A DNA stretch of 64,000 bases from Ruminococcus sp. (lineage in GTDB: Bacteria > Bacillota > Clostridia > Oscillospirales > Ruminococcaceae). The notes below the pieces were generated by a model that made no database searches, was not told the origin of the DNA, and saw nothing but the letters and a program-made list of their open reading frames with translations. Location: NCBI GenBank assembly GCA_017521805.1, contig JAFXDK010000073.1:13410-77409 (forward strand), written 5' to 3'. The translations under genes and the position numbers were made by a program. Position 1 is the first letter of the stretch. Every line of letters starts with the position of its first letter. Of this stretch, positions 10,698 through 52,362 are shown one piece after another.

Positions 10698-10726
10698 TTG
10701 ACTTTAAAGCGATAAAGTGTTATAAT
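10698..10726 (+). promoter_or_regulatory. Consensus SigA-type promoter driving the 6S-like RNA
   Basis: TTGACT (10698-10703), 17-nt spacer, TGtTATAAT (extended -10; hexamer 10721-10726). Confidence 0.65.
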
Positions 10727-10732
10727 AATATA

Positions 10733-10903
10733 TAGCTTATTGCTCCACCAATTATACCTTGCCGAAAAGACGAAAGCAGAAAGGAAATTTATCAAGGAAG
10801 AAAAACGCAGTAATGCTGTCGCATTTCAAGTTTTTCTGACGCAGAGAAATTTTCTTTATGCCGAGTATTTGATGGCAAGGTTTAGTTGGGGGAGCAATAG
10901 TAT
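10733..10903 (+). ncRNA. Candidate 6S-like (ssrS-like) rod-shaped ncRNA; alternatively an unusual tyrA leader
   Basis: Hand-folded structure:
- Closing stem 10738-10746 with 10891-10899, plus CCAA/UUGG.
- 8-bp stem 10756-10763 with 10874-10881.
- 17x17-nt central internal loop (10764-10780 and 10857-10873).
- 10-bp stem 10781-10790 with 10847-10856.
- 8-bp stem 10799-10806 with 10830-10837.
- 23-nt apical loop.
The structure begins about 5-7 nt downstream of the predicted TSS of a consensus promoter. No coding signal. Confidence 0.45.
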
Positions 10904-10937
10904 TCAGATTGTCGAAAATACATCATCCCACAAAGTA

Positions 10938-11063
10938 ATGGGATTCTAAAGGGCAAAGCCCTTTAGCAGAGTCCAGAGACAGCGTCTCTGGCAGGGTGTG
11001 GGACAGCGTCCCACATAGCGTTCAAGCGCTCTGCAAGGGGTGAATGCAAGTGAGAGCGTCCCC
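10938..11063 (+). repeat. Multi-hairpin intergenic repeat, copy A (short variant, 126 nt)
   Basis: Shares the 5' part (ATGGGATTCTAAAGGGC...) and the 3' end (...GAGAGCGTCCCC) with copies B and C. It lacks hairpin 4 and about 90 nt of the central part. Confidence 0.9.
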
Positions 11064-11132
11064 TAAAAAATCATTGCATTTTCAACAATCTTATAATATA
11101 CAATACAATATTTTACAAAAGAGGTTTTGAAC

Positions 11133-11986: not shown

Positions 11987-12030
11987 TAAAAAAATCAGGG
12001 TATCGGTTACTGCCGATACCCTATGTTTTT
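11987..12030. terminator. Bidirectional intrinsic terminator between tyrA and the ABC-F gene
   Basis: 10-bp stem agggtatcgg (11997-12006) with ccgataccct (12013-12022). An A-run lies upstream and a T-run downstream. Confidence 0.75.
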
Positions 12031-13648: not shown

Positions 13649-13736
13649 GAGCATACGAAAACCAGTATGTGTGAAATTTTCGTAGGCAAATAAATTAGAG
13701 GTTCCCTTATGTAGTTGTCGAAAAATTATAAATATA

Positions 13737-13965
13737 ATGGGATTCTAAAGGGCGAAGCCCTTTAGCAGAGTCCAGAGACGGAGTCTCTGACTGGGTATGG
13801 GACAGCGTCCCATGCAGAGCGAAGCTCTGCGATGCGTTCAAGCGCTCTGCAAGGGGTTGCCCGAACGTGAGGCAGGATGCTGTTTGAACGTGAGGGTATA
13901 TCGCACTTGGATTTGACTGCGATTGAATTGAAAAGAGGGGACGCTCTGCAAGAGAGAGCGTCCCC
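13737..13965 (+). repeat. Multi-hairpin intergenic repeat, copy B (full 229-nt unit)
   Basis: About 95% identical to copy C by hand alignment (11 mismatches, no indels). It lies between the divergent ABC-F and pectate-lyase promoters. Confidence 0.95.
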
Positions 13966-14116
13966 TTGAAAGAATGTCTGATTTTACCTTTTCTACCCTA
14001 CATTTATTTTACACATACGGAAACCATAAAACAGCCGAATTTTTTCCGTATGATGAATTATCTTTTTAGTTGCGATACAAAAGCATAATATGTCAGCTAC
14101 TCAGTATTATATATCA

Positions 14117-14145: not shown

Positions 14146-14291
14146 ATGGTTGTAAGGTTGAAACGGCCATTCAACAACCACGTGGAATAAGAATTTGTCT
14201 TATTCAGTATATCATTATCATTTTAACAAATGAGCCTGCATAGGCACAGGTTCTACAACTTATGAAGGGAAAATTAATTATGAGGAATTCA

Positions 14292-17200
14292 ATGATGAAG
14301 AAAAGAATCATGGCAATTGCCGCATCTGCTGTAGTAAGTGTATCGACAGTAACGGGAACTATCGGCGGACTTGTCGCTCCCATGGCAAACACAATTACAA
14401 CAACAATGGCAGCCGAAGCAAGCGTAAAAATCAATGCTGCTGTAGGCTACGCCGAGGGAATGTATGCAACATGGAGCTCTGTTTCAGGAGCAAGCGGATA
14501 CAATGTATATGTTGACGGCACACAGATTGACTCCGAGCTTATCAGACAGTACAGCGGCTACATGAGAGCAGATGCAGTAGGTCTTAAAGCAGGAAGCCAC
14601 ACAATCAAGGTCGTTCCAATAATCAGCGGTACAGCAGATAATTCTAAGGCTGCCGAGGCTACAGCTAATGTATACGCCCATGACAGAAGCGGCTATGCAT
14701 TCGCAGACGGTCACGCTCCCGGTGCATACAACGCTGATGGCACACTCAAAAGCGGCGCAATCGTTGTATATGTAACAGATGCAAACAAAGACAGCGTTAC
14801 AGTAAAGCTTAATGCTGAGGGTAAAGGCGAAGTTGACTGCACAGGAGTTCAGAATATCATCACAGCTTACAAAAAAGGCGCTGAAAAACGTCCTATAGCA
14901 ATCAGATTTATCGGAAACGTTACTGACCCTTCGGTTCTCACAAAGGGCGATTTAGTACTTGACACAGTTACAGCAGGCATGACAATTGAAGGTATCGGCT
15001 CTGACGCTACAGCAAATGGGTATGGTATCGTTCTTAAAAACTGTGTAGATGTTGAGGTGAGAAATATCGGCTTCATGAACTGCAACAGCTCCGAGGGCGA
15101 TAACTGCGGCCTCCAGCAGAACGATTCATACTGCTGGGTTCACAACTGCGATTTCTTCTATGGCGATGCAGGCTCAGATGCAGACCAAGCTAAGGGCGAC
15201 GGTGCTCTTGATACAAAGAAATCCCACCACATCACACATTCATACAATCACTTCTTTGATAACGGAAAATGTAATCTCCAGGGCGCAAACGCAAGTGATA
15301 CATCAAATTACATAACATATCACCACAACTGGTTTGACCATTCCGATTCCCGTCATCCCCGTGTAAGAGTTGCAACAGTTCATGTATACAATAACTACTA
15401 CGACGGCAACTCAAAGTACGGTATCGGCTCAACAACAGATTCCGATATCTTCGCTGAAAACAACTATTTCCGCAACTGCAAATACCCCATGCTCACATCA
15501 GAGCAGGGCAGCGATATAGCTACAGGAGGCACATTCTCAGGTGAAGTCGGCGGCGTAATCAAAGCATACGGCAACATCATTGAGGGCGCAAAGGCTTTCG
15601 TTCCCTACAACGAAAATCCCTCTGCATATGACGCTTATGTAGCTTCATCAAGAGATGAAAAAGTCCCCTCCTCCGTAAAGGCAATCAGCGGCGGAGCTTC
15701 ATATAACAACTTCGATACAGCAAGCGATTTCTACAGCTATAAGGCTGATGCTGCTGATGATGTTCCCGCAATCGTTATGGCAAAGGCAGGCCGTGTTGAC
15801 GGCGGCGATTTCAAGTGGGAATTCAACAATGCAGTTGACGACGAGGATTACGGTGTAAATTCCGCACTCAAGTCAGCACTCAAAGCTTACAATGATTCCA
15901 TAACAGCAATCGGCTCAGGATTCAAGGACGATGCTTCCAATCCTCCCACGACAAATCCGCCATCCACAACGCCTTCTACAGCAAAACCCTCCGCTACAAC
16001 TACGAAGGCACCCTCTCAGACCACGCCTGCACAGACAAATCCCACAACTCCATCTGTGTCAGGCGGTCAGGTCCACGACTTTACAGCAAACGGACTTAAC
16101 AGCTCATTCTTCTCAATTTCAGGTAACCTTTCCTCAAGCAAGGGAACAGTTACATATGACGGAAAAACTCTTACACAGTGTCTGAAAATGGAATCTGCAA
16201 CAAGCATTTCATTCAATGCAGGTTCTAACGGAAAGCTTACTCTTGTGTTTGTTGAACCCTCCGCTACTATCAAGGTTAACGGAACAAAGTATACAGCCAA
16301 TAACGGTATCGTTTCAGTTGACCTCAGCGCAGGTGCGCACACAATCACAAAGGCAGATAGTGTAAATCTGTTCTATATGGTATTCGGCGGCAGTGCAGGT
16401 TCTTCCAATACAACTCCCTCACAGCCTGCTCAGACAACAACCGCAGGAAATAACAATAATTCAACATCTACAACTGTAACAAATCCCCCCTCTTCAAATG
16501 CAAATTCAACAGGATTAAAGACAATTGTTGACGGTGCAATCTACTGCTCACCCAACGGAACAGGCTCAGGCACAAAGGATTCCCCCACAGATGTACTCTC
16601 AGCCATAAAAAATGTCAAGGCTGGCGGTACTATATATCTTCTTGACGGTACATACAAATACGATTCCACTATAATTATAGATTCTTCAAATAACGGCTCG
16701 GCAAATGCATACAAGACGATTCAGGCATATCCGGGCAACAGCGGCAAGGTTGTATTCGACTTCTCCGCACAGGCTGTAAGCGGCTCTAACCGTGGATTTG
16801 TCCTTGACGGTGATTACTGGCAGTTTGTCAACTTTGAGATTACCAAAGCAGGCGATAATGGTATGCTCCTTTCCGGAAACTATAACAGAATTGTTGAAAT
16901 GGTATTCAATGACAATCAGGATACAGGCTTACAGCTTTCACGCTATGATACCAACGCTTCTACTGTTGCACAGTGGCCCTCATACAATCTGATTCTCAAT
17001 TGCACGTCAAAGAACAACTGTGATGACGCAACTATGGAAAATGCTGATGGATTTGCCGCAAAACTTACCTGCGGAGAGGGCAATGTCTTTGATGGTTGCA
17101 TGGCATACAACAACTCTGACGACGGCTGGGATTTATATGCAAAAACAGAAACAGGTCCTATCGGCGTTGTAACAATAAAGAACAGTATCGCATTCAGAAA

Positions 17201-18149
17201 CGGCTATACCGAGTTCGGCGAGGGCTACGGCGACTGCGACGGAAACGGCTTCAAGCTTGGCGGTGCAGGCGTAGGTACTGCTCATATCGTTGAAAATTGT
17301 CTTGCATTTGAAAACCTCAACTGCGGCTTTACAGATAACAATAATCCCCTGCTTGGCAGTCTGAAAAATTGTACAGCATACAATAACGGCGTAGGCGGTA
17401 ATGGAAAATCAAACTATATGGTATACCGCTGTTCTTCATCAACAGCTCTTACAAATCTTATGTCCTTTACAGATACAAGCAAGGTATCTGCTACAGGTGC
17501 TGCAGGAATTAAGCTTTCCAATGACAAGTTTGTGGGAGTTATGAACAATTCCGTATACTACAACAGCAGCTATTATTTTGCAAAAAGCAATGTTTCAATG
17601 ACAAACGGCGCAAAGCTTGGAGATGTTGTTACAGTTCAGGCTTCTGATTTCATATCACTTTCCGTACCAAAAATCGGAACAGATTTCCATACAGCATGGA
17701 GAGCCTCAGACGGTTCAATAAAGACAGGCAATTTTGCAGAATCCGCAGGTACTTACTCAACTCTCGGCTATCACCTTGACGGAAAGGGTACAGCCTCTGT
17801 TCTCACTGGACAGACGGGCACAGCAGCGTCCCAGCAAACTACAAGCACAACTCAGCCTACAACTACAAAGCCCGCAACAGCATCTACAACTCCTACAACA
17901 CCTGCTAACCCCAATCTCCCTACAGCAACACTTATAGGCGACGCTAACTGCGACGGCAAGGTTTCAATCGCTGACGCAACAGCAATTCTCCAGCACTTAG
18001 GCAATTACGATAAATACGGTCTCTCTGAACAGGGACTTGCAAATGCTGACGTAGCCAACAAGGGCGACGGTATCACAGCAGCAGACGCAGTTTCAATCAA
18101 GAAGTATGATGCAAAGATAATCGACACACTTCCAGAATCTGTGCAGTAA
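14292..18149 (+). CDS. Cellulosomal bifunctional pectate lyase: PL1 domain, P/T linker, CBM-like module, PL9-like beta-helix domain, C-terminal dockerin
   Basis: - PL1: 'WVHNCDF..DGALD', 'NWFDHSDSRHPRVR'.
- PL9-like: 'NADGFAAK', 'GNGFKLGG', 'DDGWDLY'.
- Dockerin: 'GDANCDGKVSIADATAILQHL...NKGDGITAADAVSIKKY'.
The likely start is ATG 14292 (MMKKRIMAIAASAVV signal peptide, GAGGA 5 nt upstream). The ORF track starts at 14262. Confidence 0.88.
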   Translation: MMKKRIMAIAASAVVSVSTVTGTIGGLVAPMANTITTTMAAEASVKINAAVGYAEGMYATWSSVSGASGYNVYVDGTQIDSELIRQYSGYMRADAVGLKAGSHTIKVVPIISGTADNSKAAEATANVYAHDRSGYAFADGHAPGAYNADGTLKSGAIVVYVTDANKDSVTVKLNAEGKGEVDCTGVQNIITAYKKGAEKRPIAIRFIGNVTDPSVLTKGDLVLDTVTAGMTIEGIGSDATANGYGIVLKNCVDVEVRNIGFMNCNSSEGDNCGLQQNDSYCWVHNCDFFYGDAGSDADQAKGDGALDTKKSHHITHSYNHFFDNGKCNLQGANASDTSNYITYHHNWFDHSDSRHPRVRVATVHVYNNYYDGNSKYGIGSTTDSDIFAENNYFRNCKYPMLTSEQGSDIATGGTFSGEVGGVIKAYGNIIEGAKAFVPYNENPSAYDAYVASSRDEKVPSSVKAISGGASYNNFDTASDFYSYKADAADDVPAIVMAKAGRVDGGDFKWEFNNAVDDEDYGVNSALKSALKAYNDSITAIGSGFKDDASNPPTTNPPSTTPSTAKPSATTTKAPSQTTPAQTNPTTPSVSGGQVHDFTANGLNSSFFSISGNLSSSKGTVTYDGKTLTQCLKMESATSISFNAGSNGKLTLVFVEPSATIKVNGTKYTANNGIVSVDLSAGAHTITKADSVNLFYMVFGGSAGSSNTTPSQPAQTTTAGNNNNSTSTTVTNPPSSNANSTGLKTIVDGAIYCSPNGTGSGTKDSPTDVLSAIKNVKAGGTIYLLDGTYKYDSTIIIDSSNNGSANAYKTIQAYPGNSGKVVFDFSAQAVSGSNRGFVLDGDYWQFVNFEITKAGDNGMLLSGNYNRIVEMVFNDNQDTGLQLSRYDTNASTVAQWPSYNLILNCTSKNNCDDATMENADGFAAKLTCGEGNVFDGCMAYNNSDDGWDLYAKTETGPIGVVTIKNSIAFRNGYTEFGEGYGDCDGNGFKLGGAGVGTAHIVENCLAFENLNCGFTDNNNPLLGSLKNCTAYNNGVGGNGKSNYMVYRCSSSTALTNLMSFTDTSKVSATGAAGIKLSNDKFVGVMNNSVYYNSSYYFAKSNVSMTNGAKLGDVVTVQASDFISLSVPKIGTDFHTAWRASDGSIKTGNFAESAGTYSTLGYHLDGKGTASVLTGQTGTAASQQTTSTTQPTTTKPATASTTPTTPANPNLPTATLIGDANCDGKVSIADATAILQHLGNYDKYGLSEQGLANADVANKGDGITAADAVSIKKYDAKIIDTLPESVQ

Positions 18150-28293: not shown

Positions 28294-28382
28294 TGGCGCA
28301 GCGGGTGGGATTCGAACCCACGTCCCTCAGGGGGCATCATGATTTCGAGTCATGTCCGTTATGACCACTTCGATACCGCTGC
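28294..28382 (-). tRNA. tRNA-Ser (anticodon CGA), CCA encoded
   Basis: Reverse complement: GCAGCGG-TA-...-CATGA-CTCGAAA-TCATG, a long variable arm, then GTGGG-TTCGAAT-CCCAC-CCGCTGC-G-CCA. Type II cloverleaf. Confidence 0.9.
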
Positions 28383-28538: not shown

Positions 28539-29003
28539 ATGCGTTCAAAAGGAACTAAAACCATTGCCGAAAACCGCAAGGCAAGACATGAATATTTCGT
28601 TCTTGAAACATATGAAGCAGGCATTGAGCTTGTGGGTACAGAAGTAAAATCAATCCGTCAGGGTGCTGTAAATCTCAAAGATGCATGGTGCTCTATTGAT
28701 AACGGCGAAATCTTTGTGCGCGGTATGCACATTTCCCCTTACGAAAAGGGAAACATCTTCAACCGCGACCCCATGCGTGTCCACAAGCTTCTCATGCACA
28801 AACGCGAGATTAATAAGCTGTTCGGAACTGTAAAGCAGGACGGTCTTTCGCTTATACCCCTCAGCATATACTTTAAGGATTCCCGCGTGAAAATGCAGGT
28901 GGGACTTTGTAAAGGTAAAAAGCTTTACGACAAGCGCGCTGATGCCGCAAAGCGTGACGCTAACCGCGAAATTGACCGCAATATGAAATCCCGAAACAGA
29001 TAA
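28539..29003 (+). CDS. smpB: SsrA-binding protein SmpB
   Basis: '[26 protein letters not shown]' and 'GLSLIPL..YF'. Start at ATG 28539, 6 nt after GGAGG. The ORF-track start at 28488 precedes the predicted TSS. Confidence 0.92.
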
Positions 29004-29012
29004 GGTGAATAT

Positions 29013-29999
29013 ATGCTGAAAAAAATTTTTTCTGCCATAATTGCTCTTTTTATGCCAATTGCTCTGACGGGCTGTGCCCTTACAGAACGTGACCTCGTTG
29101 ACAAGACATACGAGACAAATACCCCTCCCCGACTTATGTTTCTTGGGGATTCCATAGCCGCAGGTTACGGGCTTGAGGGGTATACCTCCACTGATAATTA
29201 TTCCTGTCCCGATTCCTATGCAAATATTCTTGATGCAAAATATACAGCGGATTTAGCTGAAACATACTCCCACGAAATGCAGAATTTCGCCGTTTCAGGA
29301 GCAACCTCCGCTGACCTTATAGAGCTTCTCAACAGCGGAAAACTGGATTCTGCACTCGCAGAAACTGATGCAGTTGTTGTATCAATCGGCGGAAATGACC
29401 TGCTTGGAAATATTTATCCTATTATTTCATCACTGGGAATCACTCCCGAAAATCAGACAATAAATATTGATGATATAGATATATTGTCACTTCTCAGTCA
29501 GATTGCAACTTTAGAGGAAAATGTGGCAGATGCTCTCGTTGGTTTTGAGGCAAATCTGAAAGAAATCGCGGTAATATTAAACGATAAATCAGAGGGAGAT
29601 GTCTATATACAGACGCTTTACAATCCCCTTGAAGCCTTTACGGATATTTCGATGGTGGTAGATTTTTCAGAATCCACATTAGCTGAATTTAACCGCATTA
29701 TCAAGGATAATTCCGTAAATGGCTATAAAGTAATCGATGTTGCCGCAGATTTTGTGGGCAAATGTGAAGAGCTGACGCGTATCGGGGAGATTGATATTCA
29801 CCCCAACGAAGCAGGTCATAAGGTTATTGCTGAGGCTGTAGACAAGGCTCTGACAGCTGATACATACACCTATACCACGCAGGTATACGGCGAACCGCAC
29901 CTGACATTGACGGCTATTCTCCTAATTGCAGGGGGTATTCTTGCTATGCTGATAATTGTTGTGGTGCTTATACCAAAAATGTTCAGGAAATATGAGTAA
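29013..29999 (+). CDS. SGNH/GDSL hydrolase lipoprotein with C-terminal TM anchor
   Basis: Lipobox 'LTGC'. Block I 'FLGDSIAAGYG', block III 'GGNDL', block V 'DIHPNEAGH'. C-terminal hydrophobic helix. Confidence 0.85.
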   Translation: MLKKIFSAIIALFMPIALTGCALTERDLVDKTYETNTPPRLMFLGDSIAAGYGLEGYTSTDNYSCPDSYANILDAKYTADLAETYSHEMQNFAVSGATSADLIELLNSGKLDSALAETDAVVVSIGGNDLLGNIYPIISSLGITPENQTINIDDIDILSLLSQIATLEENVADALVGFEANLKEIAVILNDKSEGDVYIQTLYNPLEAFTDISMVVDFSESTLAEFNRIIKDNSVNGYKVIDVAADFVGKCEELTRIGEIDIHPNEAGHKVIAEAVDKALTADTYTYTTQVYGEPHLTLTAILLIAGGILAMLIIVVVLIPKMFRKYE

Positions 30000-30000
30000 A

Positions 30001-30229
30001 ATGGGATTCTAAAGGGTGAAACCCTTTAGCAGAGTCCAGAGACGGCGTCTCTGGCAGGGTATGGGACAGCGTCCCATACAGAGCAAAGCTCTGTGATGCG
30101 TTTAAGCGCTCTGCAAGGGGTTGCCCGAACGTGAGGCAGGATGATGTTTGAACATGAGGGTATATCGCACTTGGATTTGACTGCGATTGAATTGAAAAGA
30201 GGGGACGCTCTGCAAGAGAGAGCGTCCCC
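30001..30229 (+). repeat. Multi-hairpin intergenic repeat, copy C (full 229-nt unit)
   Basis: Begins 2 nt after the GDSL stop codon, in the convergent gap before hisE. 218/229 identical to copy B by hand alignment. Confidence 0.95.
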
Positions 30230-30263
30230 TCAAATTATGCACTAAGTTGATTTTACGACAGAC

Positions 30264-30292
30264 TAAATCCCCCGATTTTTCGGGGGATTCGT
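30264..30292. terminator. Terminator hairpin at the convergent GDSL / his-operon junction
   Basis: 9-bp stem aatcccccg / cgggggatt with a T-rich loop and flanks. Confidence 0.65.
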
Positions 30293-30296
30293 TGTA

Positions 30297-30635
30297 TTAT
30301 GAGTTCTTGTCAACGGTATGGAACTTTTTAAGGTTTCCTATTTTCTCATTACGCTCATCAAGGATTCTTTCAACATCAGTCCATTCAAGTCCCTGATTAA
30401 CACAAAGCACCATGATGTGATAGAGCAGGTCGTTGATTTCGTTCATAAGCTCGTCATTGTCGTTATTTTTAGCGGCAATAACAGTTTCAGTAGCTTCCTC
30501 GCCGATTTTTTTGCAAATTTTGTCTACACCCTTGTCGAAAAGGTAGCAGGTATAAGAATTTTCAGCAGCACATCCGTTATCATACTGCTTTTTTCTCTCC
30601 TTGATTACTTCAAAAATTTCGTGATATACGTTCAT
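30297..30635 (-). CDS. hisE: Phosphoribosyl-ATP pyrophosphatase
   Basis: MazG-like 'SYTCYLF..G.DKI.KK.GEEA.E..IAAKN...E...E..DL.YH..VL'. Last gene of the his operon. Confidence 0.9.
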   Translation of the reverse strand: MNVYHEIFEVIKERKKQYDNGCAAENSYTCYLFDKGVDKICKKIGEEATETVIAAKNNDNDELMNEINDLLYHIMVLCVNQGLEWTDVERILDERNEKIGNLKKFHTVDKNS

Positions 30636-30638
30636 TTT

Positions 30639-30983
30639 TTATTCCTCCGTGTTATATAATTCATTAAAGAAACAGCTGTAGCTTCCTGTATGACAGGCAA
30701 CTCCCGTCTGCTCCACATTTACAAGCAGGGTATCATTATCGCAGTCGCCATAAATTGACACAACTTTCTGCAAATGTCCCGATGTAGCACCCTTATTCCA
30801 GTATTCTTGACGGGAACGGCTCCAGAACCATGTATAACCCGTTTCAAGAGTTTTTTTCAGGCTCTCCTTGTTCATATACGCAAGCATAAGAACTGTTTTT
30901 GTGTTGATCTCGTAGCAAATTGCAGGGATTAACTCCCCTTTTTCAAAGAATTTGTCAAGGTCGTTTAAATCAATTTTAATCAT
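30639..30983 (-). CDS. hisI: Phosphoribosyl-AMP cyclohydrolase
   Basis: 'LIPAI....[13 protein letters not shown]...G...FWSRSR...W.KG.TSG..Q.V......DCD.DTLL..V...G.ACHTG..SCF'. Confidence 0.92.
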
Positions 30984-30992
30984 TTTACACTC

Positions 30993-31367
30993 CTATTCCT
31001 TAGGTACGCCGTTTTCGTCGAATTTATTTTGAAGTTCCTTTGATACTGAATTGCACGAATAAACAACATTAGCAATAAGAACAACAGAATACACAAGTGA
31101 TAAAGCTCTTGCAACATTATCTCCTTTAAAATAGTACATAAGAAATATTGCAGGAATACCAAGCAAAAGATAAACTATTCCTATTATAATCCATTGTTTA
31201 CCGCAAGCCGTATTTGCATAATTCCATGCTTCAAAGCTTGATTTTGCTAATTCAGTACGAAATCCGTACTTCATTTCCTTATCATTTGACGAATATTTTT
31301 TCATAACAAATCCGCCCAACAATACAGTAAATGAGATAACAATATTTATAATAAATATTAATTCCAT
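30993..31367 (-). CDS. SdpI/YhfL-family small membrane protein (inserted in the his operon)
   Basis: 124 aa with 3-4 TM segments. SdpI-like 'YGFRTELAKSSFEAWNYAN'. Own RBS GAGGT. 3-nt gap to hisF and 9-nt gap to hisI. Confidence 0.65.
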   Translation of the reverse strand: MELIFIINIVISFTVLLGGFVMKKYSSNDKEMKYGFRTELAKSSFEAWNYANTACGKQWIIIGIVYLLLGIPAIFLMYYFKGDNVARALSLVYSVVLIANVVYSCNSVSKELQNKFDENGVPKE

Positions 31368-31370
31368 ATC

Positions 31371-32126
31371 TTACCTCACAATTACTCCACGTTCTCTGCA
31401 ATAATCCTTAACCTCGCCTACAGTAAGCTCTCTGAAATGGAACAGAGAAGCCGCAAGAGCCGCAGTTGCTCCTGTTTTCTCGAAAACTTCATAGAAATCA
31501 TTGATTTTTCCTGCACCGCCGCTGGCAATTACAGGAATTGAGCAGTTGTCGCATACGGCTTTCAGCATTTCAATGTCGAAGCCCTCTTTTGTGCCGTCAG
31601 CGTCAATGGAGTTCAGGCATATTTCCCCTGCACCAAGCTTTTCAATTGTATGCACCCAGTCGATAAGGTCAATTCCCATATCAACTCGTCCGCCATTGAT
31701 GTACACCGTCCACTTGTGGTCCGCTATTTTTTTAGCGTCAATTCCAACACATATACATTGACTGCCGAAAATATCTGCTCCGTCCTTGATAAGCTGCGGA
31801 TTTTTTACAGCCTGCGAGTTCACAGAAACCTTGTCCGCACCTGCACGGAGAGTTTCACGTATATCGTCAACTGTCTTGATTCCGCCGCCAACTGTCAGGG
31901 GAACAAATACTTTTTTTGCAGTTTCACGCACAACATCAAGGAACACTCCACGTCCCTCAAATGACGCTGTTATATCGTAGAATACGATTTCATCTGCACC
32001 CTGCTTATTGTACTCTGCCGCACATTCAACAGGGTCGCCTACATCACGTATTCCCTCAAAATTTACGCCCTTTACTACCTTGCCGTTTCGCACGTCAAGA
32101 CAGGGAATTATTCTTTTAGCAAGCAT
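31371..32126 (-). CDS. hisF: Imidazole glycerol phosphate synthase cyclase subunit
   Basis: '[16 protein letters not shown]', 'DE.VF.DI.AS', 'GGG.....D......GADKVS.NS', 'ASGGAG'. Confidence 0.95.
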
Positions 32127-50966: not shown

Positions 50967-51055
50967 GGAGAGGTATCGAAGCGGTCATAACGAGGCGGTC
51001 TTGAAAACCGTTTGACTTAACGGTCACGTGGGTTCGAATCCCACCCTCTCCGCCA
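50967..51055 (+). tRNA. tRNA-Ser (anticodon TGA), CCA encoded
   Basis: GGAGAGG acceptor stem. Anticodon stem-loop GCGGT-CTTGAAA-ACCGT. Long variable arm. T-arm GTGGG-TTCGAAT-CCCAC. Confidence 0.9.
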
Positions 51056-51084: not shown

Positions 51085-51174
51085 GCGGATTTACCCAAGT
51101 GGTGAAGGGGCTCCCCTGCTAAGGGAGTAGGTCGGGAAACCGGCGCGAGAGTTCAAATCTCTCAATCCGCGCCA
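51085..51174 (+). tRNA. tRNA-Ser (anticodon GCT), CCA encoded
   Basis: GCGGATT acceptor stem. Anticodon stem-loop CTCCC-CTGCTAA-GGGAG. Long variable arm. T-arm GAGAG-TTCAAAT-CTCTC. Confidence 0.9.
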
Positions 51175-52152: not shown

Positions 52153-52181
52153 TTGACAAACAGATGAATATATGATATAAT
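52153..52181 (+). promoter_or_regulatory. Consensus SigA promoter of the cobalamin-riboswitch transcript
   Basis: TTGACA (52153-52158), 17-nt spacer, TGaTATAAT (hexamer 52176-52181). Confidence 0.7.
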
Positions 52182-52187
52182 TTAAAA

Positions 52188-52362
52188 GTAAAAATAAGGG
52201 AAGTCGGGTGAGAATCCCGCGCAGTCACGCTACCGTGTTGCGCCGTATGAGCGCTAAGTCGGGTCGCTTCATTGACTACAGTTTACGAGCGATGAACTGT
52301 AGTTTATTTGTTATGCAAAAATCGCTCTCCGTGTATATTTTTTATACCTCGGAGAGTTTTTT
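52188..52362 (+). promoter_or_regulatory. Cobalamin (B12) riboswitch with terminator expression platform
   Basis: The core 'AAGGGAAGUCGGGUGAGAAUCCCGCGCAGUCACGCUACCGUG' closely matches the conserved cobalamin-riboswitch core (GGGAA..GGUG.GAAUCC..GC.G.C.CGC.AC.GU). A B12-box-like 'AAGUCGGGUCGC' follows. The terminator is ctctccg (52325-52331) with cggagag (52350-52356) plus T6. A candidate antiterminator pairs gagcgat (52287-52293) with atcgctc (52321-52327). The downstream genes are B12-associated. Confidence 0.7.

Follow-up and report, generated by a model that had tools for sequence, protein, structure and literature searches.

The DNA analysed here is a 64,000-nt stretch from Ruminococcus sp., which we call the window, and the question raised by the locus at 30001-30229 is whether a repeat made up of small G+C-rich hairpins is held to its fold by selection. 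A first-pass annotation of this DNA had compared the locus with other copies by hand and had taken the paired substitutions between them as a sign that the secondary structure of RNA or single-stranded DNA is under selection, rather than that junk repeats are drifting. Below we describe the copies and their anatomy, the covariation across the wider family and the insertion sites, and then weigh the explanations for the observed pattern.

Copies in the window and anatomy of the repeat

A comparison of copy B (13737-13965) with copy C (30001-30229) gives exactly 11 differences over 229 positions and no indels, as the annotation had counted; with 30001 taken as position 1, they are 17 C>T, 21 G>A, 46, 54, 56, 78 G>A, 85, 94 C>T, 103, 144 and 154. 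Four of the 11 make up two compensatory pairs, both of the G-C to A-T type, and both were found where they had been placed: positions 17 and 21 form the innermost pair of hairpin 1 (AAAGGGC GAA GCCCTTT becoming AAAGGGT GAA ACCCTTT), and 78 and 94 form the outermost pair of hairpin 4 (GCAGAGC..GCTCTGC becoming ACAGAGC..GCTCTGT). Positions 46 and 85 do fall within 3-nt loops, and copy A supplies the third case that had been reported, in the outer pair of hairpin 3, which reads GTGGGAC AGC GTCCCAC in this copy and ATGGGAC AGC GTCCCAT in B and C. When 11 random substitutions were placed on copy C in 200,000 simulations, two or more compensatory doubles arose by chance in 0.28%. The region folds much more stably than shuffled sequences do, with z-scores of -5.9 for RNA of the + strand, -8.1 for RNA of the - strand and -7.0 for DNA of the + strand.

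According to a profile search the window holds just three copies, A, B and C, all on the + strand and intergenic. These copies, the parts of copy C and the neighbouring terminator are listed here.

10903..11091, + strand: copy A, short form; core 10940-11064; clear terminal inverted repeats AGATTGTCGAAAATACA / AGATTGTTGAAAATGCA
13711..14001 (outer limits approximate), + strand: copy B; core 13739-13966; left repeat GTAGTTGTCGAAAAA..; right end degraded
30003..30264, + strand: copy C, whole inserted segment, about 262 nt, ends +/-2 nt; empty sites in strains L249 and L250
30003-30231, + strand: core of copy C; left terminal repeat absent
30010..30028, + strand: hairpin 1 of copy C, TAAAGGGT GAA ACCCTTTA; apical pairs covary (UA, AU, GC, CG)
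30029..30034, + strand: long-range helix, 5' strand GCAGAG; partner 30109-30114; seen in the MFE fold
30036..30054, + strand: hairpin 2 of copy C, CCAGAGAC GGC GTCTCTGG
30060..30078, + strand: hairpin 3 of copy C, TATGGGAC AGC GTCCCATA
30078..30094, + strand: hairpin 4 of copy C, ACAGAGC AAA GCTCTGT; site of the 78/94 double change between B and C
30109..30114, + strand: long-range helix, 3' strand CTCTGC; followed by AAGGGG at 30115-30120
30121..30198, + strand: insert module of about 80 nt, replacing canonical hairpin 5
30199..30231, + strand: hairpin 6 of copy C; 13 bp stem, loop GCAAGAG
30232..30264, + strand: right terminal segment of copy C; right inverted repeat ..GATTTTACGACAGACT
30266..30289, unstranded: native bidirectional terminator hairpin of the lipase gene and hisE, AATCCCCCGATTTTTCGGGGGATT; kept in L249 and L250

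The hairpin at 30266..30289, which is flagged as terminator-like, lies outside the element and was the insertion target of copy C; on the other side, the lipase gene ends 3 nt upstream of the copy. The copies span 189-291 bp and contain no ORF of 60 aa or more, and a 69-aa ORF overlaps the left end of copy A (10903-10949). Tandem-repeat structure was looked for and is absent, and exact-protein look-ups with the genes flanking copy B and with the gene downstream of copy A returned no match.

The canonical core of the family is about 172 nt long. It starts with GGGATTC, hairpin 1 (TAAAGGG..CCCTTTA), GCGGA, hairpin 2 (CCAAAGGC AGA GCCTTTGG) and hairpin 3 (GTGGGGC AAA GCCCCGC), continues through a variable linker into GCGC-TCCGC-AAAGGG-TGAATT, and includes hairpin 5 (A5-6 CAGTCC GGT GGACTG T5-6), which is conserved in 47 of 47 copies, with hairpin 6 (AGAGGGAACGCCCT GCAAGNG AGGGCGTTCCCT) coming last. 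A long-range pairing of 4-6 bp between GCGGA and TCCGC (GCAGAG and CTCTGC in the window) encloses hairpins 2 and 3 and so creates a three-way junction, and the AAGGGG at 30115-30120 could have CCCTTT of hairpin 1 as an alternative partner. Conservation within the family is highest in the lower stem of hairpin 1 and in the GGGATTC just before it.

Apart from this common plan, the body of the element is a mosaic of G+C-rich hairpins, mostly with stems of 7-14 bp and loops of 3 nt. Copy A is short, while copies B and C carry hairpin 4 as an extra module, which is absent from copy A and from canonical copies, and have the insert of about 80 nt in the place of hairpin 5; this insert is limited to B, C, one further locus (L030) and, in part, another (L141). 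Other copies contain further G+C-rich hairpin modules in either orientation, and modules have been inserted, deleted and swapped. Hairpin 5 is palindromic and is matched by our covariance model on both strands. Its anatomy fits an intrinsic terminator on both strands, but a simple terminator scan does not flag it in canonical copies because the A and T runs pair with each other. In copies B and C, hairpin 6 read on the - strand is followed by TTTT and is terminator-like by the same kind of scan.

Covariation across copies and the folding strand

The first-pass annotation had proposed that many copies be aligned and tested statistically for covariation, and had stated that its claim would fail if stem positions varied without keeping their pairing or if no significant covariation emerged. 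We carried out this test with 47 and with 120 copies; in both sets the covariation went beyond the controls, and neither of the two contrary outcomes was seen. The smaller set consists of 47 distinct canonical cores, hand-anchored and aligned without reference to structure, for which RNAalifold predicts 55 pairs in 6 helices. In this alignment 98.8% of stem cells are paired, as against 93.5 +/- 0.2% in shuffles and 32-59% when the partners are slid by 1-3 columns; 24 of the 55 pairs show double-sided changes (8.3 +/- 1.6 in shuffles, 5-9 after sliding), and the covariation score is 0.163 (0.063 in shuffles, 0.028-0.056 after sliding). The observed values were reached by 0 of 500 shuffles. For the larger set, 120 distinct copies were aligned by the covariance model, and since this alignment is fitted to the structure and leans towards it, its values have to be read with that in mind: 96.9% of stem cells are paired (shuffles 81.5%), 54 of 55 pairs are double-sided (shuffles 27.8) and the covariation score is 0.209 (shuffles 0.062).

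The individual helices contribute in different ways. In hairpin 2, 99.7% of cells are paired and covariation is seen at two positions (one changing from A-U to G-C, the other from G-C to A-U), and across copies 7 of the 8 pairs in hairpin 3 show double-sided changes. The long-range helix (alignment columns 32-35 with 104-107) reads GCGG/CCGC in most copies and has undergone two independent double changes, to GCAG/CTGC in the subfamily of the window and to GCGA/TCGC in the copy at locus L098. With 90-96% of its cells paired this helix is less strict than the others, because one successful subfamily carries a G.A mismatch in it. The covariation lies mostly between subfamilies and species, and therefore the independent events are far fewer than the cells counted.

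The fold is kept through compensatory changes beyond what the controls produce, and selection on a single-strand fold is thereby supported. Some of the short-range double changes could have been contributed by template switching within near-palindromes. Of the original claim, the part that invoked constraint on the structure of RNA or single-stranded DNA stands, but the contrast that it drew with junk repeats is false: the element is a selfish-looking, dispersed mobile repeat and is structurally constrained at the same time. The constraint probably acts on lineages of propagating and persisting copies and not on each copy separately.

As to which strand folds, G.U and A.C cells were counted on the + strand, where the former outnumber the latter by 88 to 25 in the whole structure, by 73 to 19 in the left half (hairpins 1-3 and the long helix), by 5 to 0 in hairpin 5 and by 10 to 6 in hairpin 6. 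The counts speak for the + strand as the one that folds, in the left half at least, with the excess coming largely from one position that is U.G in 37 of 91 copies; counted by position, the numbers are 24 and 16, a difference that is not significant. As to the type of molecule, nearly all loops are of 3 nt and closed by C-G (AGA, AGC, AAA, AAC, GAA and GGT). Such C-G-closed triloops, for example in GCGAAGC, are a hallmark of very stable DNA mini-hairpins, and GCGAAGC is present verbatim in copy B. The triloops point to DNA rather than RNA. A promoter belonging to the element was not flagged ahead of copy B or copy C, nor do the left ends of the subfamilies share a conserved one. The terminal repeats carry an outward-facing TTGACA, which faces a hairpin.

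Distribution, ends and insertion sites

A first scan of a genome collection of 596 Gb used the 15-mer AATGGGATTCTAAAG, which is too short for the purpose: it returned 116 loci, mostly chance matches, among which about 20 Ruminococcus loci are real. At least six Ruminococcus assemblies contain genuine copies; they come from an uncultured Ruminococcus sp. (nearest to the window), R. flavefaciens, 'Ca. R. hominiciens' and rumen isolates. The element is common in this genus, and the window itself has the look of DNA from a cellulosomal Ruminococcus of the gut or rumen. A more specific pattern found at least 120 loci in metagenomes from human gut, rumen and digesters, giving at least 162 copies by pattern in all, 50 of them cut by locus ends, and the covariance model gave at least 124 + 62 matches, about 35 of which are cut off at contig ends. 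Among viral contigs there were four pattern matches, of which only one (L238, 62.5 bits, cut at the contig end) is strong, and the plasmid and phage collections contained no match to the repeat. Genomes hold many copies and the element often ends contigs; it is a high-copy dispersed repeat that breaks assemblies. The module of hairpins 1 and 2 also stands alone in other Clostridia and once, at locus L010, forms an inverted doublet.

Full copies are bounded by terminal inverted repeats that are imperfect and about 17-30 nt long (left ..CAGCTTGTCRAAAAAG.., right ..CTTTTTYGACARVCTG..), conserved across loci and present in most subfamilies; the two ends match at 18 of 21 positions in copy A and at 14 of 18 in the copy at L181, and that at L153 has 15 exact matches. 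Direct repeats of 12-34 nt flank 14 of 59 non-redundant copies, compared with 0 of 300 mismatched flank pairs. In the clear cases (21 nt at L071, 24 at L181, 26 at L129, about 32 at L152 and 31-34 at L151 and L194) each flank repeat is an entire, locus-specific terminator-like hairpin with the same loop orientation on both sides, the right one retaining its T-run and the left one abutting the element. Most of the flank repeats found are whole hairpins. About one quarter of the copies are bracketed by a direct repeat of a whole hairpin (21-34 nt), and the parsimonious reading of these flanking sequences is that they are target duplications. Among the fetched loci, no empty alleles of hairpin-flanked copies were found; these loci did include allelic filled sites and an internal-deletion variant (L176 compared with L006).

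For copy C, empty sites do exist. In the strains L249 and L250, which were found through a look-up with hisE, the lipase stop codon and an A/T run are joined straight to the bidirectional terminator hairpin, and the covariance model found no match in either. Copy C itself is without a left repeat and without a clear duplication of the hairpin, native coding sequence lying upstream of its GGGATTC, and its history therefore needs either a secondary deletion, for which a 7-nt microhomology (ATAAAAT) is at hand, or a one-ended insertion. For copy A, comparison with a rearranged strain (L254) places the left breakpoint at 10902/10903, the outer edge of the left repeat.

The element has the short (under about 600 bp), non-coding form, the terminal inverted repeats, the many dispersed copies and the presence/absence differences between strains by which MITEs are recognised, whereas a related autonomous element sharing its ends, another such hallmark, was not found in about 1 Mb of related DNA, where a partner with matching ends 0.6-3.5 kb apart was looked for. 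Loose matches to the terminal repeats away from cores look like chance, as does a 12-mer match to the left repeat of copy A at position 2185 of the window, which lies inside coding sequence.

The copies occupy a particular kind of site. Of 43 copies with ORFs on both sides, 42 adjoin the 3' end of a gene, in either orientation: 19 are convergent, 23 tandem (9 co-oriented and 14 anti-oriented) and one, copy B of the window, is in a divergent intergenic region. The element lies within a few nt of an intrinsic-terminator hairpin, and where a gene reads towards its right end, the distance from that end to the stop codon is typically 55-69 nt, a spacing that fits the right terminal repeat plus one hairpin. 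With 9 co-oriented and 14 anti-oriented tandem copies, a function that strictly depends on sense RNA fed by read-through would misfit some copies. The terminal repeats, the targeting of terminators and the wide distribution are all features beyond those that the first-pass annotation had seen.

Explanations, known relatives and significance

The repeat is a non-coding, MITE-like element that lies beside terminator hairpins and keeps a defined fold. The explanation that we favour extends this to a MITE-like repeat that is mobilised in trans, duplicates the hairpin at which it inserts, resides in 3' untranslated regions and is kept harmless by its fold and by termination; we put the probability of this whole picture at roughly 55%, with more confidence in the mobile repeat with a conserved fold and less in the part that concerns RNA and terminators. 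A transposase acting in trans would cut on both sides of a terminator hairpin, which would leave the hairpin duplicated. As the insertion would come to lie between stop codon and terminator, the element would be transcribed within the 3' untranslated region, as sense RNA with respect to one neighbour and as antisense with respect to the other. Hairpin 5, with its A-run, stem and T-run, would act like a bidirectional terminator, and in copies B and C, which lack it, hairpin 6 of the - strand with its TTTT may be terminator-like instead. A compact fold with built-in termination may make an insertion harmless or even protective for the flanking mRNAs, and if it is the fold that keeps insertions harmless, only those lineages that keep it would persist and spread.

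A stronger version of this explanation, which we regard as rather unlikely, would see a 'terminator-hopping' cassette, a kind not known to have been described among non-autonomous elements, that recognises the structure of terminator hairpins and not their sequence, duplicates hairpins, insulates both neighbours with its own bidirectional terminator and needs its junction for propagation. The three-way junction would then be a functional domain of RNA or single-stranded DNA and may contain a purine-motif base triple, a hint of which is that AAAGGG co-varies in mirror image with the 5' arm of hairpin 6. A comparably small share of the probability goes to the proposal that it is hairpins of single-stranded DNA that matter, either as substrates of an HUH/Y1-type enzyme (REP/RAYT or IS200/IS605-like) or as cruciforms that assemble a transposition complex, so that compensation would reflect the need of propagating copies for DNA hairpins. 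It would account for the 3-nt C-G-closed loops, including the verbatim GCGAAGC in copy B, for the DNA fold z-score of -7.0, for an orientation independent of flanking transcription and for a wobble asymmetry that favours one strand. The invariant GGGATTC and lower stem of hairpin 1 resemble a site recognised by a protein, GGGATTC is exactly where copy C has its left junction, and the occurrence of the module of hairpins 1 and 2 on its own or as the inverted doublet in other Clostridia fits as well. However, terminal inverted repeats and flanking direct repeats are foreign to HUH/Y1 elements, a conserved GTAG-type tetranucleotide is absent, a casual look noticed no Y1 transposase gene, and the long-range helix and the terminator-like hairpin 5 would be left with no obvious role.

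That the structure is unselected, with double changes produced by intrastrand template switching or gene conversion and with subfamily inheritance mimicking covariation, we consider improbable. Short stems with 3-nt loops are ideal snap-back substrates; the covariation mostly separates subfamilies, which leaves few independent events, and the shuffle control ignores relatedness. The controls with slid partners, on the other hand, keep relatedness and yet yield only 5-9 double-changed pairs against 24, and a covariation score of 0.028-0.056 against 0.163. Nor does this explanation sit well with the two independent double changes in the long-range helix, where 68 nt or more separate the two strands, or with a U.G pair in hairpin 3 that persists in 27 of 47 copies and has not been 'corrected'; the free variation of loops and linkers contrasts with pairing in 98.8% of stem cells, and stems stay paired between species despite many diverged positions. 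It is very improbable that the repeat is a free-standing, multi-copy gene for a structured small RNA with its own promoter and terminator, its mobile features being secondary. Six covarying helices that include a multi-branch junction, the excess of G.U over A.C on one strand, the terminator hairpin and T-run that follow the right end in many copies and a weak match of the 5' module to the Rfam family Clostridiales-2 (21.6 bits, E = 0.003-0.008) would all agree with such a gene, but upstream of B and C there is no promoter-like site and none is conserved in the left ends, modules are freely inserted, deleted and swapped, copies are so numerous that assemblies break, Rfam gives no family at threshold, and the element has terminal repeats, flank duplications and an empty site.

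Searches of the window and of 16 related loci with Rfam at the gathering threshold gave no family. Membership in Clostridiales-2 (RF02937) was considered and rejected, the score of 21.6 bits standing against a gathering threshold of 58.6 with the middle of the model unmatched; the likeness is confined to the 5' leader and first hairpin (an A-rich leader, GGG, an 8-bp stem and a GAAA-type loop). In the literature searched we found neither the core sequence nor an earlier description of this family or of any such Ruminococcus repeat; the general kind of repeat is a familiar one.

To our knowledge there is one known precedent for the duplication of a hairpin upon insertion, namely IS1630. This IS30-family element of Mycoplasma fermentans is described in PMC2853133 as inserting at terminator-like inverted repeats of variable sequence. 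Its target duplications, at 19-26 bp, are presented there and in the title of Calcutt et al. (1999) as unusually long, variable direct repeats. The element described here resembles it in having long flank repeats, which in our case are 21-34 nt and each comprise a whole locus-specific hairpin. It differs in that IS1630 is autonomous and encodes a transposase whereas our element is non-coding and only 189-291 bp long, and no IS30-type partner was found in the related DNA of about 1 Mb.

The pneumococcal BOX and RUP, the Correia elements of Neisseria and the enterobacterial ERIC belong to the mosaic, structure-forming repeats and MITEs of intergenic regions, which have been reviewed (PMC2229807). 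The present repeat is like these in being short and structured. All four are short, non-coding, dispersed and intergenic, are often co-transcribed with their neighbours and form stable stem-loops; BOX is modular, and Correia and RUP have terminal inverted repeats. The duplications made by these elements are of 2 bp (TA), if there are any, and the elements are not known to target terminators. Nor are a covarying three-way junction, a terminator-like central hairpin and hairpin-length flank repeats known for any of them. The REP sequences and BIMEs of Enterobacteria and Pseudomonas are G+C-rich extragenic palindromes which are found at gene 3' ends, form mosaics, occur in either orientation and are moved by RAYTs; compensatory changes preserve their stems, and a protective effect on the upstream mRNA has been proposed for them. 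A REP consists of one hairpin, about 35 nt in length, with GTAG conserved on its 5' side; it is linked to a Y1 transposase gene and is not known to have terminal inverted repeats or target duplications. REP palindromes, of about 20-40 nt, often form inverted doublets. Here, by contrast, the conserved 5' flank is GGGATTC, the element is a composite of several hairpins with terminal inverted repeats, and a doublet was seen only at L010. Class C group II introns insert just 3' of intrinsic-terminator stem-loops and recognise their structure and not their sequence. Unlike these introns, the repeat has terminal inverted repeats, lies in both orientations relative to the terminator, and no intron domains were seen in it. 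A group II intron remnant was also rejected, hairpin 6 being without the features of domain V and the ends not fitting. What is unusual about the family is the targeting of terminators, the probable hairpin-length duplication and the covarying junction.

In the human gut and in the rumen, Ruminococcus species are key fibre degraders, whose genomes are for the most part available as fragmented assemblies. The repeat is one cause of the contig breaks, and a covariance model of it would aid assembly, annotation and the typing of strains by presence or absence of copies. Even if it were merely another BOX-like or REP-like element, it would still add an example from Clostridia to a list that is dominated by Proteobacteria and streptococci. 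Beyond this, the family is a clear natural example of a selfish repeat that keeps its internal fold from species to species and lands nearly exclusively at terminators, apparently duplicating them, and it opens testable questions on how mobile DNA may choose its targets by structure and on what makes insertions at gene ends harmless.

Mirror-image co-variation inside the repeat

When the copies of this non-coding mobile hairpin repeat were aligned (alignment A2), the purine block that comes 3' of the long-range helix was found to covary in mirror image with the 5' arm of hairpin 6, in the combinations AAAGGG/GGGAAC, AAGGGG/GGGGAC and AAGAGG/GGAGAC. This co-variation is seen across all of the approximately 45 full copies, bar four to five singleton exceptions.

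Mirror-covarying blocks
Alignment A2 columns 108-113 and 154-159; in copy C, 30115-30120 and 30201-30206

Watson-Crick pairing of the two blocks is excluded by the mirror symmetry. A purine-motif base triple would require such symmetry between the two blocks, and the sequence pattern may reflect a structure of this kind; the co-variation may, however, be a mere marker of three old lineages.

Surroundings of the copies in the window

A promoter-like site close to consensus (TTGACT, 17 nt, TG-TATAAT; 10698-10726) lies upstream of copy A, and is separated from the prephenate dehydrogenase gene by a leader of approximately 190 nt (region 10698-10902). The ends of this leader, upstream of copy A, could pair over 9 nt (TATTGCTCC with GGAGCAATA), and the leader matched no Rfam family. 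Further along, the prephenate dehydrogenase gene is divided from the ABC-F gene by a clean bidirectional terminator (AGGGTATCGG..CCGATACCCT, 11996-12023) with T-runs on both strands and no element adjoining it. Sites of this type are used by the repeat elsewhere, and this one stands unoccupied. Downstream of copy B, a secreted protein of 1295 aa is encoded (14262-18149), and by eye its C-terminal end looks to be a dockerin-like repeat (GDANCDGKVSIADA..); on this reading, the DNA would seem to come from a Ruminococcus that forms cellulosomes. The Rfam scan of the window returned one riboswitch and three tRNA genes.

RNA features from the Rfam scan
28297-28382, - strand, tRNA gene
50967-51052, tRNA gene
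51085-51171, tRNA gene
52180-52308, AdoCbl (B12) riboswitch, 72.9 bits

Rearrangement at, and possibly between, insertion sites

Among loci fetched from other assemblies, the strain variants of window positions 29000-31400 (L241-L250) reveal the hisE-lipase intergenic region as a rearrangement hot spot: it is empty, without the element, in L249 and L250, occupied by a 370-aa DHQ-synthase-like gene in L242 and L245-L247, and has wholly different neighbours in L241, L243, L244 and L248. In L243, a solo remnant resembling the right terminal repeat (..CAGATTTTTCGACAATTTCG) immediately adjoins another terminator hairpin. L136 and L154 have a common upstream flank and different downstream flanks, and L154 and L160 a common downstream flank and different upstream flanks, which reflects either recombination between copies at different loci or assembler mis-joins across the repeat.

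Hairpin modules within and outside the elements

The 5' module of the repeat (GGGATTC, hairpin 1, AGCGGGG, hairpin 2) is found alone in other Clostridia, as a head-to-head inverted doublet in L010, close to the end of a 5S/23S rRNA operon in L187 and, as read by eye from the translation, immediately upstream of a putative dnaN in L133. A second module, a small hairpin (GACTCCCCACAGTGTGGGGAG-ATGTCAGCGAAGCTGACAG-AGGGGACGG..), occurs within elements in both orientations and also separate from them, and a third (GCGGGGAGCCCCCGC) behaves in the same way.

Loci with hairpin modules
Stand-alone 5' module: L001, L010, L119, L122, L128, L130, L133, L137, L182, L187
Second and third modules: L118, L152, L171, L155, L080, L132, L190; L153, 7136-7180; L047, 6283-6328

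The genomes with the second and third modules seem to hold a stock of interchangeable G+C-rich hairpin modules.
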